From NCBI GenBank assembly GCA_964520645.1, contig CAZFND010000002.1, positions 9,424 through 73,423 of the forward strand: DNA of 64,000 nt, written 5' to 3'. Numbering within the stretch: the first letter of the stretch is position 1; the number at the start of each line of letters is the position of its first letter. Below are positions 3,681 through 56,184 of the stretch, piece after piece. The notes below the pieces were generated by a model. It was not told the origin of the DNA and ran no database searches. It saw only the letters and a program-made list of their open reading frames with translations. Position numbers and translations under genes: made by a program. Source of the DNA: an uncultured Candidatus Saccharibacteria bacterium (lineage in GTDB: Bacteria > Patescibacteriota > Minisyncoccia > Phycocordibacterales > JAKAEA01).

Positions 3681-3713
3681 AAAAAAGACGCTCGCCGGTG
3701 AGGGCGAGCGTCG
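3681..3713 (-). terminator. GC-rich intrinsic terminator (GACGCTCGCC-ggtgag-GGCGAGCGTC followed by T6 on minus strand)
   Basis: Perfect 10 bp stem plus U-run immediately 3' of the lipoprotein ORF stop. Confidence 0.6.
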
Positions 3714-3730
3714 GGGTGAAGAAACAAAGA

Positions 3731-4024
3731 TCAGTAGTTGCTGGACGGGCGGCATTCGGTGCGGTTGGTGTTGGTGTGGCTGGTCTTGTAGTCGCGGACA
3801 TCCACGTTGATGGGATATCCATTGCCACGACCACCTCCGTGCCAGGTCATGTCCGACCCAAAACGAACCGGGCCGTTACTGCGGACATCCCGCACGTAGT
3901 CCACCCTGGCCCCGTCCTTGTGCAGCTCCTCGTGGAACGAGGTCTCATGGTACACACGGCAGCCGGACATGAGGCTCAGCGACGCAACGATCACAACGAG
4001 AAGCGCGAAACGGGAAGTATTCAT
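3731..4024 (-). CDS. small secreted lipoprotein-like protein encoded in a GC-rich (~60%) insert
   Basis: 97 aa; signal peptide ending LMSG-C (lipobox-like) and Gly-rich mature part. Local GC is far above flanks; own terminator present. Confidence 0.45.
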   Translation of the reverse strand: MNTSRFALLVVIVASLSLMSGCRVYHETSFHEELHKDGARVDYVRDVRSNGPVRFGSDMTWHGGGRGNGYPINVDVRDYKTSHTNTNRTECRPSSNY

Positions 4025-4156
4025 AGACAGAGCTCCCTAAAGGGTTGGTTTCGGATCACTATTGAACTGTGTATATTATACCATATCGGTATATATTGTC
4101 AATGGGTGTATGAGTGGTTTGTTTGTGGCTTCAAACCAAGGTATTATTACTGATAT

Positions 4157-5833: not shown

Positions 5834-5840
5834 AAAACAA

Positions 5841-7233: not shown

Positions 7234-7289
7234 GTCCCTCTCCTGGTAAGGAGAGGGTGGCCGACTTCTTAGGAGGACGGGTGAGGCGG
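7234..7289. repeat. GC-rich palindromic element copy 1 (inverted orientation): CCCTCTCCTggtaAGGAGAGGG ... GGGTGAGGCGG
   Basis: Near-identical to copies at 7696-7744, 50628-50663 and 56147-56184. Confidence 0.7.
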
Positions 7290-7293
7290 TGAT

Positions 7294-7644
7294 TCATAGA
7301 GAATTCTGAATGACCTCTATTACCTTCTCAAACTCATTTTTAATATCTATATTCTTAAACCTAAGTACCATGTATCCTTGTTCTTCAAAGAACAAAGTTC
7401 TTTGATTGTCATATATTTTTGATTCAGCCTCATCATGAACTCCCCCATCAATTTCGATAATAAGCTTCGCTGCTGCACAATAAAAATCAACAATGTAATA
7501 TCCAATACTGTGCTGCCGCCTGAACTTAACACCTAAATTTCTATTTCGTAACACTTCCCAAAGCTTTTTTTCATAAAAAGTACCATTTCTTCTTAGTTCT
7601 TGTCTTCTTCTTTTTAATTCTCGAATATTGTGAATCTTTTTCAT
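7294..7644 (-). CDS. DUF559 endonuclease-like (Vsr/restriction-endonuclease fold) small protein
   Basis: 116 aa from MKKIHNIRE; motifs LWEVLRNRNLGVKFRRQHSIGYYIVDFYC...LIIEIDGGVHD typical of DUF559. The ORF-track N-terminal extension to 7809 is translation of the flanking repeat. Confidence 0.6.
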   Translation of the reverse strand: MKKIHNIRELKRRRQELRRNGTFYEKKLWEVLRNRNLGVKFRRQHSIGYYIVDFYCAAAKLIIEIDGGVHDEAESKIYDNQRTLFFEEQGYMVLRFKNIDIKNEFEKVIEVIQNSL

Positions 7645-7695
7645 ATCTTTACTGTACAGAAATAGTAATAAAGAGATCATAAAAATATTATAAAG

Positions 7696-7744
7696 CCGCC
7701 TCACCCGTCCTACGGACACCCTCTCCTTACCAGGAGAGGGACGG
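7696..7744. repeat. GC-rich palindromic element copy 2: CCGCCTCACCC-N12-CCCTCTCCTTACCAGGAGAGGG
   Basis: Inverted copy of 7234-7289 flanking the DUF559 gene. Confidence 0.7.
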
Positions 7745-7784
7745 TATATTTGATTTTCGAAAAGCATACGAGTATAGTTTGTGC

Positions 7785-8315
7785 ATGGCTGGACATAATA
7801 AATGGTCAAAAATTAAACGACAAAAAGGTGCTTCTGACGCACAGCGCAGTAAGCTTTTTAGTAAAATGGTCCGCTTTATTGGTGTAGAAGCAAAGAAAGC
7901 AAAGGGCAATCTCACATCCCCTGGACTCAAATCTGCTATCGACGCAGCGCGCGCTGCCAACATGCCCAATGACACTATCGAACGTGCTATCAAAAAGGCA
8001 ACAACCGACAACTCAGCTGATATGGAATCTATTACCTATGAAGCTTATGGACCTGGAGGCTCTGCCCTTATCATTGAAGCTTTGACGGATAACAGAAATA
8101 AAGCTGCTCAAGAAATAAAATTTATTTTAAGTAAAAATGGAGCATCCCTTGCAGCAATGGGTGCTGCTTCATGGGCATTCACCAAAGAAAATAATGAATG
8201 GGTTGCTCAAACCACCACTCCTCTATCTGAAGAAGATAGTACTAAGCTCGAAGCACTTATAAATGAGCTCGAGGACAACGACGAAGTACAAAACGTATAC
8301 ACTAACGCTGAATAA
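7785..8315 (+). CDS. yebC: YebC/PmpR family transcriptional regulator (short form with internal deletion)
   Basis: MAGHNKWSKIKRQKG, ITYEAYGPGGSALIIE, C-terminal LEDNDEVQNVYTN; ~60 aa shorter than canonical YebC. Confidence 0.75.
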   Translation: MAGHNKWSKIKRQKGASDAQRSKLFSKMVRFIGVEAKKAKGNLTSPGLKSAIDAARAANMPNDTIERAIKKATTDNSADMESITYEAYGPGGSALIIEALTDNRNKAAQEIKFILSKNGASLAAMGAASWAFTKENNEWVAQTTTPLSEEDSTKLEALINELEDNDEVQNVYTNAE

Positions 8316-46763: not shown

Positions 46764-47081
46764 ATGTCTAAAAAGTTTCAAAAGAGGGTAGAGGATTTTG
46801 TGTGTGAGAAATGTGGTTTTGCTATGAAAAGTAATGGTTTTACCAACCATTGCTCACAATGCCTATGGTCAAAACATGTAGATGTTAATCCAGGGGATAG
46901 GGAAGCAGTGTGTGGTGGCCTTATGCAGCCTGTAGATTTTGTAAAGGAGAAGCTCAATTACATGATCACTCATCAATGCACTGTCTGTGGGTATCAGAAG
47001 AGAAATAGGCTTGCTCCAGAGGACAACTTTGATAAGGCTCTTGAAATTGTAAAGAAAAAGGCAGATAAATTGCTAGGATAA
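46764..47081 (+). CDS. RNHCP-domain zinc-ribbon protein
   Basis: FVCEKCG…FTNHCSQCLWSKHVD…GDREAVCGGLM…CTVCG; pattern of RNHCP family. Confidence 0.45.
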   Translation: MSKKFQKRVEDFVCEKCGFAMKSNGFTNHCSQCLWSKHVDVNPGDREAVCGGLMQPVDFVKEKLNYMITHQCTVCGYQKRNRLAPEDNFDKALEIVKKKADKLLG

Positions 47082-49984: not shown

Positions 49985-50554
49985 CTAGAAAACTTTGTCG
50001 ATAATACCGTATTTCTTAGCCTCATCTGCGTCCATGAAATAGTCACGGTCAACATCTTTCTCTATCTGAGCAACAGATTTGCCGGTATTTTCTGCGAGAA
50101 TCTTATTAAGTCGCTCTCGAGTCTTGATAATTTGCTTTGCGGTAATCTCAATATCAGAAGCACGTCCTTCGGCACCGCCCCAAGGCTGGTGAATCATGAT
50201 TTCTGAGTTTGGAAGGGCAAATCGCTTACCTTTCTTACCAGCAGAGAGGAGAAGTGCGCCTGCAGAAGCTGCAATCCCTACGCACACAGTAGAAACATCA
50301 GGCTTAATGTGGTTCATGGTATCAAGAATAGCCAACGCAGATGTTACTGATCCTCCAGGAGAGTTGATATAAAGAGAAATATCTTTCTTTGGATCTTCTG
50401 ATTGAAGGAAAAGAAGCTGGGCGATGATAATATTAGCTACATTGTCGTCTATTGGGCCAGCAAGGAAAATAAGTCGCTCTCGGAGCAATCGTGAGTAAAT
50501 GTCATAGGCTCGCTCGCCAAATTGTGATTTTTCGATAACTGTTGGGATTAACAT
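49985..50554 (-). CDS. clpP: ATP-dependent Clp protease proteolytic subunit
   Basis: [11 protein letters not shown] (Ser), IMIHQP (His) catalytic motifs. Confidence 0.9.
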
Positions 50555-50627
50555 AGGTTATTTATATATATAAGTGAATGGGGACAGTATACTATTGGGG
50601 AGAAGTTTTGCAAATTATGCATAAATA

Positions 50628-50663
50628 CCGCCTCACCCTAGCCCTCTCCTTACCAGGAGAGGG
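50628..50663. repeat. GC-rich palindromic element copy 3 (CCGCCTCACCC-tag-CCCTCTCCTTACCAGGAGAGGG)
   Basis: Same family as 7234-7289/7696-7744/56147-56184. Confidence 0.7.
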
Positions 50664-50683
50664 AAGTCTTAGCTTTTACTGTA

Positions 50684-51067
50684 GTGTTACGCTATAATCT
50701 TCTCATGACTCGATTAATTTCATTTATCGCTGGTATAGTACTTATTATTTTCTCAGTTGGGTATAGTTATTTATTTGGTAAAACGCATGATAGTCTTGAG
50801 GTTCTTACAATAGCAGGAATTCCTTTAATTATAGGTTTGTTTTTATCTCTTGTTCCTGCTATTTCTTATCTATTTAGAAATAATAAAAATCTTACTAAAA
50901 GTGTACACCCAGCAATAATATGGGGAATTTGGTTAGTTTTGTATGTTACTACTCCATTATCTGGTAATTACATGTTTATTGTAGGAAATGCCGCTCGAGT
51001 TTTCTTTGTGGTAGGAGTTTTATCTTTAATTACTTACCTAATGAATTCAAGAAAGAACACTAATTAA
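50684..51067 (+). CDS. small membrane protein (4 TM), unknown function
   Basis: Hydrophobic ORF; start codon uncertain. Confidence 0.35.
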   Translation: MLRYNLLMTRLISFIAGIVLIIFSVGYSYLFGKTHDSLEVLTIAGIPLIIGLFLSLVPAISYLFRNNKNLTKSVHPAIIWGIWLVLYVTTPLSGNYMFIVGNAARVFFVVGVLSLITYLMNSRKNTN

Positions 51068-51070
51068 TAC

Positions 51071-51826
51071 ATGCGTCTCCATCGATTTTTCATAGAAGAG
51101 CAGCTTCGCAATAAAAAAGAGATTACTATCTTGGAAGAAGAGCTTCTTCATCAGCTCAAGCATGTATTCAGGCTTAATGCTGGAGACAAGCTTATTCTTC
51201 TTGATAATTCTGGCTATGAGTACATGTCAGAAATCCTTTTGCTTACGAAGAGCAAAGCTGAAATAAAGATACTTAGTTCTGATCTTTCAGAAAACATTCC
51301 CAATACAGATAAAGAAGTGTGGCTTTTTGCATCTTTAATAAAGAAAGATAATTTTGAATGGATTATAGAAAAAACGACAGAACTTGGAATTTCGCATATT
51401 GTCCCAGTAATATCAGCTCGTACAGAAAAGAAAGAACTTAATATAGAACGAGCGCATAAGATTATAAAAGAAGCATCTGAACAGTCAGGAAGGGGAATAA
51501 TGCCTCTTTTACATGATACGAGAAATTTAGAGGATGCTATTGCGCATGCTCAAGAGCAAAATATTAATTTAATAGCATTTCATCTTGATGGTGATGCTTT
51601 TAATTTAGATCATGTATTACATAACCAGAGTAAGTTAGAAAAATCTTTAGGCATTTCATCGGAACATAAAAAATCGGGAATTCTTATTGGCCCAGAAGGA
51701 GGATGGAGTGATAATGAAATTCTATTATTTAAAACAAAAAATATACCCATCTATTCTATGGGCAAACAAGTGCTAAGAACTGAAACAGCGGCGATTGCAA
51801 TTTGTGCACTTATCTTATTAAAATAA
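51071..51826 (+). CDS. rsmE: 16S rRNA (uracil1498-N3)-methyltransferase RsmE
   Basis: MRLHRFFIEE N-terminus, PUA-like then SPOUT domain pattern (GPEGGWSDNE). Confidence 0.7.
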   Translation: MRLHRFFIEEQLRNKKEITILEEELLHQLKHVFRLNAGDKLILLDNSGYEYMSEILLLTKSKAEIKILSSDLSENIPNTDKEVWLFASLIKKDNFEWIIEKTTELGISHIVPVISARTEKKELNIERAHKIIKEASEQSGRGIMPLLHDTRNLEDAIAHAQEQNINLIAFHLDGDAFNLDHVLHNQSKLEKSLGISSEHKKSGILIGPEGGWSDNEILLFKTKNIPIYSMGKQVLRTETAAIAICALILLK

Positions 51827-51836
51827 ATACAGTATA

Positions 51837-52049
51837 ATGTTGAGTATGAAAAGCATAAAATTAGTATCTTTATTAGCAGTTGTATTTGTAATTGTAGACA
51901 TCATCATTCTTACTATTTTAAAAATAATGGGAAGTATTGATGCGACTCAATATACAGATACACTGACTAAATCATTAAGTATACTTGGTGTTGTCTATGT
52001 CGGTGTTCTTGTAATTTCTCTTGTTCTAAGTTTCTTCAGTTCTAAATAA
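51837..52049 (+). CDS. small two-TM membrane protein
   Basis: 70 aa hydrophobic ORF. Confidence 0.3.
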   Translation: MLSMKSIKLVSLLAVVFVIVDIIILTILKIMGSIDATQYTDTLTKSLSILGVVYVGVLVISLVLSFFSSK

Positions 52050-52130
52050 TTGACTTATCTTATTTAAGTTGTATAGTGTTATTGGAGTGAGTTTAATTAT
52101 ATAATCTTCATTAAGAAGGGAGTGTACCTT

Positions 52131-52409
52131 TTGACGACTGACTACAAAGAGTTTCCGACTGGCAGTAAGTGGGAGAGAGAGTATCGACAGAGAATCAAGG
52201 CAATTGTTGATCGAGCAAGGGCAGAAGAGGAGGCGAAGAAGGCAGGAATACCCAATACCACCGTTGAGATCAATCCTGAGCAGCAACCTCAGACACCAAT
52301 GCCGCCTCGATCGAAGATATCTCCCCAAAAAGTCTTGGCAATTTTGGGCGCAGAGAATCCGAAGATCCGTTGTGCTCGTCGTAGGACAGATGATCTTCCG
52401 AAAAAATGA
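52131..52409 (+). CDS. small basic protein (paralog 1) in GC-elevated islet
   Basis: TTG start 9 nt after SD AAGAAGGGAG (alternative GTG 52122); C-terminal KVLAILGAENPKIRCARRR shared with paralog 2; own GC-rich terminator. Confidence 0.4.
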   Translation: MTTDYKEFPTGSKWEREYRQRIKAIVDRARAEEEAKKAGIPNTTVEINPEQQPQTPMPPRSKISPQKVLAILGAENPKIRCARRRTDDLPKK

Positions 52410-52418
52410 ATACCAATA

Positions 52419-52450
52419 GGCCCGGGATGTAATCCCGGGCCAGTTTTTAT
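52419..52450 (+). terminator. GC-rich intrinsic terminator GGCCCGGGAT-gtaa-TCCCGGGCC + AGTTTTTAT
   Basis: 9-10 bp perfect stem plus T-run. Confidence 0.7.
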
Positions 52451-52557
52451 GTAAAGATCGTTACAAGTTGTTAATTGACTAAGTGTTTTTTAGTTGTAAA
52501 CTCTACAATAGATTTCTAAGGTATTATTCATTCACTTTCTTGTTGAAAGGATTCGGC

Positions 52558-52872
52558 ATGGCGAAGTGTCCTCGATGTGGCATGGAGCGGAAGAGAGGGC
52601 GACACATCTGCATCAATCCCACGGTTCCTCCTCGTTTGTCCAAATCGCAACGAAAGCTGAAGAAAGCAAGGGAAAGAAGAAGGGAAGAGGCTGCTGAACG
52701 TGAACAAAGAGTGGCAGCACTCATACAGAGCCAAAAGGTAGATCCTAATGAGCTTCGTTCTTGGAAATTTACCAAAACGCAGCTGCCACCCAAGCAACCG
52801 CCTTATGCAAAGGTTGTTGCAATTCTGAAAGCTGGAACACCTGCCGAAAGACAAGCACGAAAACGTGCGTAA
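52558..52872 (+). CDS. small basic zinc-ribbon-like protein (paralog 2)
   Basis: MAKCPRCG… N-terminus after AAAGGA SD; Arg/Lys-rich; C-terminal KVVAILKAGTPAERQARKRA similar to paralog 1. Confidence 0.45.
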   Translation: MAKCPRCGMERKRGRHICINPTVPPRLSKSQRKLKKARERRREEAAEREQRVAALIQSQKVDPNELRSWKFTKTQLPPKQPPYAKVVAILKAGTPAERQARKRA

Positions 52873-52886
52873 TCTGTTCAATCACA

Positions 52887-52916
52887 AACCCCACGCATGT
52901 GCGTGGGGTTTATTTT
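52887..52916 (+). terminator. GC-rich intrinsic terminator AACCCCACGCA-tg-TGCGTGGGGTT + TATTTTAT
   Basis: 11 bp perfect stem plus T-run. Confidence 0.7.
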
Positions 52917-52927
52917 ATATTTAGATT

Positions 52928-53989
52928 TTATTTTTGACTCTCCAACATCAGTATTACTTTTTCGCGGGTGAGAGTTGTATTGAGATATGTATTGATTGCG
53001 AGGGGATCGGCATCTTTGTATTGTGCCATGAGATGCTTAGCTTCGTGCTCAATAGTTTCTTTGTCGGCACTAATTTTTTCTTGAACAGCTATTGTATCAA
53101 GAATGACACTAAGCTTTGCTCGCTTTTCTGCATCGGGCAACCATTCTTTTCGTAAATCTTCAGGAGTCTTTTTGATATGCTTTAGGTAGTCTTCTACTTT
53201 GAGGCCCATACCCATGATATCTCCTTCAAACTGAGCAAACATTCTCTGAAGTTCGTTATCTATAAGTATTTGGGGAAGCTTAACATCGGTATCTGCAACG
53301 AGTTTTTCAAGAAGTTTAATTCGCTTCTTTTCTTTTGTGCGATGTTCTTTTTCTTTAAGAAGATTTTCTTTTGCTTTTGCCTTAAAGTCTGCAACATCAG
53401 TAAAGTTACCAAGAGTTTTTACAAACTCATCGTTGAATTCGGGCATATGCTTTGCAGTCTCTTCTTCAGAGTGATTGTGACCGGCATCTTTATTTACTTT
53501 ATGAAATTCTTGATGCGCTTTTTGTTTTCGTACTTCGGTAATAACATCTTCAATCTCTTTGTCAGTCACTTCGATCTTTTCATCTTTTTCTGCCATTTCT
53601 TTCTTGGCAATTTTTTTAAAATCAGGAAGTTTTACTTCAGGCATGACTGCAATTTTGATTTTGAATTCGATAGGATTGCCAGGAGCGAGCTTGGTAATTC
53701 CAATCTGTGGGCGACCAATAAAGTTGGGTGCATTTTTTTCAATAATCTCAGGAGCAACATCTTTGAATGCCATTTCTGCAGCTTCTTCAAGAATGTAAAT
53801 TTCTCCAACTTTTTCTACCAATACTTTTTCTGGAATATGACCCTTTCTAAATCCAGGAACATTGATACTCTCGCCAATATCTTTGAGAGCTTTTTTTCTA
53901 TATTCAGGAATAGCAGCAAGAGTAATTTCACCCGTGATTTCTACTTCAGAATTTTCTGTTTTTGTTACTTTTATGTTTTCGTATTTCAT
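52928..53989 (-). CDS. tig: trigger factor lacking the central PPIase (FKBP) domain
   Basis: N-terminal ribosome-binding domain with GFRKGHIP signature joined directly to C-terminal chaperone domain; 353 aa vs ~430 canonical. Confidence 0.7.
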   Translation of the reverse strand: MKYENIKVTKTENSEVEITGEITLAAIPEYRKKALKDIGESINVPGFRKGHIPEKVLVEKVGEIYILEEAAEMAFKDVAPEIIEKNAPNFIGRPQIGITKLAPGNPIEFKIKIAVMPEVKLPDFKKIAKKEMAEKDEKIEVTDKEIEDVITEVRKQKAHQEFHKVNKDAGHNHSEEETAKHMPEFNDEFVKTLGNFTDVADFKAKAKENLLKEKEHRTKEKKRIKLLEKLVADTDVKLPQILIDNELQRMFAQFEGDIMGMGLKVEDYLKHIKKTPEDLRKEWLPDAEKRAKLSVILDTIAVQEKISADKETIEHEAKHLMAQYKDADPLAINTYLNTTLTREKVILMLESQK

Positions 53990-55792: not shown

Positions 55793-55899
55793 TATAATTT
55801 TTATTAATTTTTTAAAAAAAATGGCCCGCCGTGAGGCGAACTTGATTCCATAATAATAGGCTGGATTGGCGATTTTGTCAATCTTTAGTATTTAACCAA

Positions 55900-56100
55900 A
55901 AAATAGCCCCCGTCGACACTTGTCGAACGGGGGCAGAGATGTGAGCTTCACGGGATGCGGGAATGTCTGGCTTTGCGTAAGCCCGCGCTTACGATACCTG
56001 CCAGGATCACCAATGCGGTCAGGAACAGTCCCATTGTCTTCACTCCATGAATAAGCCAGCGCGCAACCGTGCGCGCTTACAAAAGAGCTTACGTACTCGA
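55900..56100 (-). ncRNA. candidate GC-rich structured RNA (unknown class) with promoter and intrinsic terminator, upstream of nusA
   Basis: Minus strand: TTGACT-N17-TACATT promoter near 56105-56135; several GC-rich hairpins; ends with GCCCCCGUUCGACA-agug-UCGACGGGGGC + U6 at ~55905-55941. No credible ORF. Confidence 0.3.
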
Positions 56101-56146
56101 GCAATGTAACATTGTATTTGATAATAGTCAAGTTATATAACCATAA

Positions 56147-56184
56147 CGCCTCACCCCTGGCCCCTCTCCTTACCAGGAGAGGGG
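56147..56184. repeat. GC-rich palindromic element copy 4 (CGCCTCACCC-ctgg-CCCCTCTCCTTACCAGGAGAGGGG)
   Basis: Same family as other three copies. Confidence 0.7.

Follow-up and report, generated by a model that had tools for sequence, protein, structure and literature searches.

The stretch of DNA analysed here comprises 64,000 nucleotides (nt) of contig CAZFND010000002.1 and is called the window throughout; its overall guanine plus cytosine (GC) content is 38.6%. Between the housekeeping genes rsmE and tig, the latter encoding trigger factor, it contains two tandem mini-cassettes on the same strand (52047-52918), which are the subject of this report. Each cassette is composed of a sigma-70-like promoter, an inferred leader that is equal in length in both (46-48 nt), a Shine-Dalgarno (SD) site, a small open reading frame (ORF) and a GC-rich terminator (Table 1). 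Two adjacent small ORFs, each with a GC-rich terminator, had already been pointed out in a preliminary description of this DNA and both were found, the first with 92 or 95 amino acids (aa) depending on the start codon, the second with 104 aa. The genes rsmE and tig are convergent in the window, and the 1101 bp from stop codon to stop codon hold, besides the two GC-rich cassettes, a 70-aa membrane ORF of native composition. ORF2 and tig are convergent as well, the stop codon of tig (52928-52930) being located 16 nt beyond terminator 2. All in all, we consider it rather probable that the two cassettes are real, acquired orphan paralogues whose products most likely bind nucleic acids.

Table 1. 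Features of the rsmE-tig junction, in window coordinates (pI, isoelectric point; ORF limits and products are predicted)
Feature	Position	Strand	Details
70-aa ORF	51837-52049	+	two predicted transmembrane helices; starts 10 nt after rsmE
Promoter 1	52047-52077	+	-35 TTGACT (52050-52055), 16-nt spacer, -10 TATAGT (52072-52077)
Dyad 1	52053-52069		ACTTA-N7-TAAGT; in the spacer of promoter 1, overlaps the -35 hexamer; candidate operator
ORF1	52131-52409	+	TTG start, 92 aa; SD GGGAG (52118-52122) 8 nt upstream; pI 9.9
ORF1 C-terminal motif	52329-52388	+	KVLAILGAENPKIRCARRRT; residues 67-86
Terminator 1	52419-52448	+	10-bp stem with 8 G-C pairs, GGCCCGGGAT/ATCCCGGGCC, then TTTTT
Promoter 2	52472-52502	+	-35 TTGACT (52475-52480), 16-nt spacer, -10 TAAACT (52497-52502)
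Dyad 2	52478-52494		ACTAA-N7-TTAGT; same position as in cassette 1; candidate operator
ORF2	52558-52872	+	104 aa; SD AAAGGA (52546-52551) 6 nt before ATG; pI 11.3
ORF2 C2HC knuckle	52567-52611	+	CPRCGMERKRGRHIC; residues 4-18
ORF2 C-terminal motif	52810-52869	+	KVVAILKAGTPAERQARKRA; residues 85-104; modelled as two short helices
Terminator 2	52886-52918	+	11-bp stem, AAACCCCACGC/GCGTGGGGTTT, and T-rich tail

The promoter segments of the two cassettes are identical at 21 of 27 nt. Alignment of the two cassettes yielded, post hoc, a 31-nt pattern (TAATTGACT-N7-TTT-N-AGTTGTA-N-A-N-T) that is common to both promoters and is present nowhere else in the window; in the first cassette its initial three bases are the stop codon TAA of the preceding 70-aa ORF. 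Translation of ORF1 more plausibly begins at the TTG at 52131 than at the alternative GTG at 52122, because the GGGAG element sits 8 nt upstream of the former. The 95-aa product that would result from the GTG start is present in a public protein collection (source NCBI) and the exact ORF2 product is found there, too. Both terminators have perfect stems and begin 9-13 nt past the stop codon, their hairpins (52419-52441 and 52886-52911) reaching -21.4 kcal/mol (z -4.5) and -20.6 kcal/mol (z -5.3), respectively. The preliminary description had assigned them to the same style as the terminator of a lipoprotein islet elsewhere in the window. GC-rich terminators with a T-run are indeed present but this style is not exclusive to islets, since perfect-stem terminators are also located behind native genes at 5840, 44014, 45862 and 47828; only the almost all-G/C stems with 8 G-C pairs are islet-specific, occurring at 3687 and 52419 only.

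The products predicted from the two ORFs are rich in lysine and arginine (20 of 92 residues in ORF1 and 29 of 104 in ORF2) and resemble each other in their C-terminal 20 residues, 11 of which are identical (pairwise BLASTP E=0.003). The local alignment score of the two proteins was reached in 6 of 2000 composition-preserving shuffles, i.e., with modest significance. In sequence the C-terminal unit consists of a hydrophobic KV[LV]AIL helix, a G/N/T-P turn and an Arg/Lys-rich helix. Single-sequence AlphaFold2 models of both proteins predict a common architecture with a long charged helix, for which the predicted local distance difference test score (pLDDT) is above 90, a flexible Pro/Gln-rich linker of low confidence and short C-terminal helices; the motif itself is modelled as two helices in ORF2 and as one clear helix plus a 3-residue turn in ORF1. 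The N-termini are different: where ORF2 has the CPRCG-x8-HIC knuckle, ORF1 carries 12 unrelated residues. The putative ligands of the knuckle (C4-x2-C7-x8-H16-x-C18) are only three cysteines and one histidine, and AlphaFold2 places a short β-hairpin of low confidence (pLDDT 62-67) at this position. No zinc-ribbon family in Pfam or NCBIfam matched ORF2 at E<=10, the sole zinc-ribbon-named model returned being NCBIfam ribbon_DG_selen with 13.5 bits against a cut-off of 130. Thus the Lys/Arg-rich character of both products, the conserved C-terminal motif after Pro-rich stretches and the zinc-ribbon-like CPRCG motif at the beginning of ORF2, all named in the preliminary description, were recovered, the second at modest significance and the third with its incomplete set of cysteines and low model confidence. 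The paralogy proposed there gains moderate support from the motif, the predicted architecture, the leader lengths and the 31-nt promoter pattern. If motif, promoter segment, leader length, gene layout and modelled architecture are taken jointly, an old tandem duplication appears as the simplest reading; each of these lines is moderate by itself and all of them agree.

Homology searches with both peptides detected no relatives in any resource searched. Pfam, PHROGs, NCBIfam and PADLOC returned only noise for either protein at E<=10, and a word-indexed search of 5.8 billion clusters gave self matches only for ORF1 as well as ORF2. A phmmer search of ORF2 against 1.84 billion representatives likewise found only the query itself, the exhaustive HMMER search having been confined to this protein. 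There was neither a sequence nor a fold match in the PDB, no tblastn match in phages and plasmids, and no match of peptide-pattern scans in IMG/VR (both ORFs) or in JGI metagenomes (ORF2 only). The back-translated C-terminal motif had 0 matches in IMG/VR as a strict pattern and 85 matches as a loose one, which is about the number estimated for chance, and no small basic ORF ended in any of the latter. N-termini of phage proteins (M..E.TIKVLAILKAAYPNSY) accounted for a few of them and were judged unrelated. The reach of these searches is given by the pair itself: the ORF2 search does not detect ORF1, so that relatives as divergent as ORF1 and ORF2 are from each other would escape. Judged by their sequences, ORF1 and ORF2 are taxonomically restricted orphan genes.

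Their composition differs from that of the surroundings. The GC content of the ORF bodies is 0.49-0.50, whereas flanks, promoters and leaders have 0.23-0.35, in agreement with the preliminary description, in which a local GC of about 50% was reported to exceed the flanks (window 0.386). With native codon use the two amino acid sequences would be encoded at a GC content of 0.437 (ORF1) and 0.469 (ORF2). This means that about half of the GC excess stems from the Arg/Ala/Pro/Gly/Glu-rich content of the proteins and the remainder from non-native synonymous choices. At third codon positions the GC content (GC3) amounts to 0.46 in ORF1 and 0.40 in ORF2, compared with an expected 0.27 +/- 0.045 (z 4.3 and 3.0), which is clearly non-native for both. 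When each amino acid sequence was taken as given and its codons were evaluated against the window's own codon table, the synonymous-codon log-likelihood was also low (z -5.1 for ORF1 and -4.7 for ORF2); the controls HU, trigger factor and 70-aa ORF were native-like in the same test. As GC3 and synonymous usage are non-native, a foreign origin of the pair seems preferable to de novo birth from AT-rich spacer DNA.

A comparison with surveyed prokaryotic orphan genes points in the same direction. In a survey of gut-microbiome orphans (Vakirlis and Kupczok 2024, PMC11293555) the GC content of orphan genes is reported to match that of their genome closely. The pair shares with the orphans of this survey the lack of an outside homologue, the short length, the prediction of disordered or helical structure, the sub-optimal codons and the absence from a related locus. 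It differs from them in being 11 GC points above the genome, with GC3 3-4 standard deviations over native, and in consisting of two deeply diverged paralogues. Because of the latter, an older family residing in an unsampled donor would explain the pair better than de novo birth from AT-rich intergenic DNA.

Since the nearest relatives of the trigger factor in a species-representative genome set are metagenome-assembled genomes (MAGs) labelled Candidatus Saccharibacteria (46%) and Candidatus Kaiserbacteria (40%), the source of the window appears to be a low-GC bacterium of the Candidate Phyla Radiation (CPR)/Patescibacteria type. The closest trigger factor found (66% identity) is encoded on a metagenome contig, here called L003, and is again convergent with an orthologous rsmE (54%). 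In L003, which is the one informative relative for this junction, the stop codons of rsmE and tig are only 36 bp apart, this interval being a bidirectional terminator, and the pair is missing. The 70-aa ORF is likewise missing there and thus belongs to the extra 1.07 kb of the window but not to the GC-rich pair. In a more distant Kaiserbacteria relative (L002, 9953-12282) clpP lies about 0.6 kb downstream of tig on the same strand and is followed by rny. The window (49985-53989) has a plus-strand block (50684-52920) containing a 127-aa membrane ORF, rsmE, the 70-aa ORF, ORF1 and ORF2 between clpP and tig. Because rsmE is already convergent with tig in the closer relative L003, this rearrangement is older than the GC-rich pair.

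Absence from the orthologous junction and non-native synonymous codon use together support a lineage-specific foreign insertion at the convergent rsmE/tig junction, as far as sequence comparison can tell, and the acquired nature of the genes suggested in the preliminary description has thus stood. No integrase or transposase is encoded nearby, the neighbours being housekeeping genes; significant flanking direct repeats were not detected at the insertion and the nearest tRNAs are 5 kb away. Alternatively, the two genes could be remnants, neutral or in decay, of a mobile element or phage that once inserted here; they may still be transcribed and even translated but would be functionless for the cell. 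Orphan status, foreign codon usage, absence from L003, a neutral landing site between convergent genes and the divergence of the two copies almost to the detection limit would all fit such remnants. Nevertheless, promoter hexamers, SD sites, ORFs and perfect-stem terminators are intact in both cassettes despite saturated synonymous divergence, the sole clearly retained protein segment has been kept through synonymous changes, and no integrase, transposase or repeat boundary of an element is present in the vicinity. We therefore regard functionless remnants as unlikely.

GC-rich islands in AT-rich genomes are often RNA genes, and the cassettes might accordingly be genes for small non-coding RNAs (about 360 and 410 nt) that are transcribed from separate promoters and end at separate terminators, in which case the ORFs would be by-products of a GC- and purine-rich composition. 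The restriction of the GC rise to the transcribed bodies, the clear promoters and terminators, the non-native codon usage combined with zero protein homologues and the existence of long antisense ORFs would suit this explanation. On the other hand, the sense ORFs are significantly long: their length was reached in only 5 (ORF1) and 11 (ORF2) of 2000 dinucleotide-shuffled versions of the respective cassette (p about 0.0025 and 0.0055), and both are preceded by a correctly spaced SD site. When all six frames of one cassette were aligned with all six of the other (36 pairings), the highest local protein score, 58, belonged to the annotated frames, the runner-up reaching 38. In the C-terminal motif the codons differ for 9 of the 11 identical residues and only 26 of 60 nucleotides agree, so that the similarity is visible in the protein and not in the nucleotides, a pattern indicative of selection on the protein. 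Folding energies of the transcript bodies are at shuffle level (z +0.52 and +0.14), in contrast with z -3.0 for a neighbouring small-peptide islet. Rfam 15 gave no match at the gathering score; the matches obtained in E-value mode were look-alikes of the terminator hairpins at half the gathering score or less, and no tmRNA was found in the window. With neither an Rfam match nor an excess of folding energy, the structured-RNA reading is rejected, and small non-coding RNAs in general seem quite improbable; the cassettes are most likely protein-coding and translation of both ORFs is predicted. The antisense ORFs (100 and 117 aa) had been considered compositional artefacts in the preliminary description, and they do lack statistical support comparable to that of the sense ORFs.

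In the interpretation that we prefer, the cassettes would thus represent two real, independently transcribed coding genes, ancient and strongly diverged paralogues of one orphan family, that were inserted as foreign DNA where the convergent genes rsmE and tig terminate in a low-GC genome of the CPR type. Their products would bind nucleic acids via the basic C-terminal hairpin, assisted in ORF2 by the knuckle. Charge, zinc knuckle and helical content make nucleic-acid binding probable; of the acquired nucleic-acid-binding pair envisaged in the preliminary description the acquisition was retained, whereas no homology or fold match stands behind the binding.

Both promoters contain a short palindrome in the spacer that could serve as an operator. 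The two dyads differ at one position, which is changed symmetrically in both arms so that the palindrome is kept. They are the only true dyads of the form ACTWA-N7-TWAGT in the window, with arms of only 5 bp and noticed post hoc. It may be speculated that each protein, or a regulator shared by both, binds to the palindrome between -35 and -10 and thereby represses transcription. Dimeric regulators, each with its cognate operator dyad and maybe identical with the two products, are possible rather than likely. A further-reaching proposal would be that the pair founds a new family of small DNA-binding regulators, in which each paralogue has co-evolved with its own operator since the duplication, and that it is part of a broader, hitherto undescribed accumulation of GC-rich single-gene mini-islets in this genome (at 3.7-4.0 kb, at 55.9-56.1 kb and the pair), all equipped with a promoter and a terminator and delivered by a donor of higher GC content, for example the host of an episymbiont or its phages, but we would give this only a slight chance.

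Among known systems, small autoregulated DNA-binding repressors of phages and plasmids, of the Cro/Xre-like helix-turn-helix (HTH) or ribbon-helix-helix (RHH) type, offer parallels, namely the size, a palindrome between -35 and -10 of the own promoter, the foreign origin and an HTH-like prediction for the C-terminus with a hydrophobic first and a basic second helix. They differ from the pair in that here the motif ends after two short helices, so that the canonical recognition helix may be missing, and in that the arms of the dyads are 5 bp. Membership in an HTH or RHH regulator family found no support from profiles: searches at E<=10 of Pfam, PHROGs and NCBIfam returned no such family, and there was no PDB match. 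Small helical nucleoid-associated proteins such as GapR are to be listed among the closest known systems, too. Residues 3-22 of ORF2 (KCPRCGMERKRGRHICINP) resemble by eye the CPxCG...HRVC of bL32 and the C-x2-C...RKGR..ICxNP of bL36. Like these ribosomal proteins, the protein is small and very basic, and translation genes are frequent around it (rsmE, tig, nusA). In contrast with them, the ligand spacing is different, the ligands are 3 Cys and 1 His, the remaining 80 residues are without a counterpart and ORF1 has no knuckle. A bL32/bL36 assignment was dismissed, as no Pfam or NCBIfam ribosomal model was returned at E<=10.

Integron cassettes were ruled out as well. An integron cassette consists of a promoterless ORF plus attC, an imperfect palindrome of at least 57 nt with a GTTRRRY core, and is found next to intI. 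Here each ORF has its own promoter, and the hairpins are perfect stems of 23-26 nt followed by T-runs and devoid of the GTTRRRY core; intI was not searched for.

Two adjacent small foreign genes may also remind of a toxin-antitoxin pair or of a defence/anti-defence module. Orphan islets frequently turn out to be two-gene modules of this sort, and another islet of the window resembles a type I toxin. However, because a strong terminator (-21 kcal/mol) and a second promoter are interposed between ORF1 and ORF2, they do not form an operon. Moreover, the products are paralogous instead of having two different folds, and there is no match to a toxin or antitoxin model in PADLOC, Pfam, PHROGs or NCBIfam. 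A type II toxin-antitoxin system was discarded on the grounds of the interposed terminator and promoter and of the missing PADLOC and Pfam matches, and a two-gene module of any of these kinds is very improbable. An assembly or binning artefact, in which foreign reads were merged into a MAG contig, is hardly credible: composition does jump sharply at the ORF boundaries and the contig is apparently metagenome-derived and CPR-like, but the GC-rich parts measure only 280-320 bp each, with host-like AT-rich DNA of promoters and leaders between and around them, the stop codon of the 70-aa ORF overlaps the promoter pattern of cassette 1, tig ends close behind terminator 2, and a chimeric join would not yield two such embedded segments.

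Several points weigh against real, acquired, nucleic-acid-binding paralogues. For the paralogy, statistical support is no more than moderate (E=0.003, p about 0.003) and comes from a single 20-residue stretch. Besides the sense ORFs there are long antisense ones (100 and 117 aa), atypical codon usage would also be expected of non-coding sequence, and coding conservation across species is not demonstrable as there is no homologue in any searched resource. The insertion is not accompanied by any mobility gene, tRNA or flanking direct repeat that would hint at its mechanism, and a deletion in the L003 lineage is possible instead of a gain in the lineage described here. A DNA- or RNA-binding domain was not detected in the products. 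Finally, promoter pattern and dyad were both recognised post hoc and a 5-bp dyad is weak.

If expressed, ORF1 and ORF2 would constitute a new protein family without detectable relatives among about 15 billion predicted proteins, and this in a poorly understood lineage with reduced genomes. Side-by-side paralogues with their own promoter variants would then be a compact test case for the acquisition, duplication and regulatory wiring of orphan genes, and they would bear on the question whether CPR genomes take up small genes from partners with higher GC content. If not expressed, they would be one more example of hypothetical small ORFs, and such orphans are common in these genomes.

The genes around the pair encode RNase Y, ClpP, RsmE, trigger factor, inorganic pyrophosphatase and NusA. 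Trigger factor (52928-53989, minus strand) is short with 353 aa and shows the Pfam domains Trigger_N and Trigger_C only, with no FKBP-type peptidyl-prolyl isomerase domain between them. The composition of the 70-aa ORF is native and very AT-rich (GC 0.28). It is bracketed by a 14/15-nt direct repeat (51808-51822 and 52053-52067), which by estimate is at chance level for AT-rich DNA, and is either a native gene restricted to this lineage or a spurious reading frame. A 105-aa zinc-ribbon protein with an RNHCP domain is encoded at 46764-47081 on the plus strand; its gene and that of a UPF0102 (YraN-like nuclease) protein are interleaved with a tRNA cluster (Arg, Gly, Pro, Gly; 45.6-47.2 kb).

Two further GC-rich islets are present in the window. 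The lipoprotein islet (3687-4045, minus strand) has a GC content of 59.5% and codes for a protein of 97 aa that bears a lipobox-like LSLMSGC signal. Its GC3 of 0.77 is 11 standard deviations above native expectation, and it possesses a TTGACA-17-TATAAT consensus promoter and the terminator with 8 G-C pairs. It is the most clearly foreign segment of the window. The 97-aa protein had no Pfam match, and in the search for a donor the large protein index gave no candidate, not even the protein itself. The third mini-islet (55890-56130, minus strand; about 50-56% GC) is equipped with a TTGACT-17-TACATT promoter, a structured leader with a paired GGAG SD site, a reading frame for a hydrophobic peptide of 28-31 aa whose tail is basic, (MKT)MGLFLTALVILAGIVSAGLRKARHSRIP, and, at 55906-55934, a strong GC-rich terminator. 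Its transcript, the one referred to above, folds at z -3.0 versus shuffles. The peptide had no Pfam match and an antisense RNA was not identified; by its layout this islet looks like a type I toxin mRNA.

Besides these islets, the window contains four copies of a repeat, CCGCCTCACCC...CCCTCTCCTTACCAGGAGAGGG, with a perfect 8-bp hairpin (7235-7290 on the minus strand; 7696-7741, 50629-50664 and 56140-56184 on the plus strand), the number expected by chance being 0. Two inverted copies flank an ORF for a DUF559 protein (Vsr-like endonuclease) at 7294-7809; of the others, one separates the 127-aa membrane ORF from clpP and one is located beside the toxin-like islet. The repeat may represent an element resembling repetitive extragenic palindromes (REP) or miniature inverted-repeat transposable elements (MITE), or one associated with DUF559.

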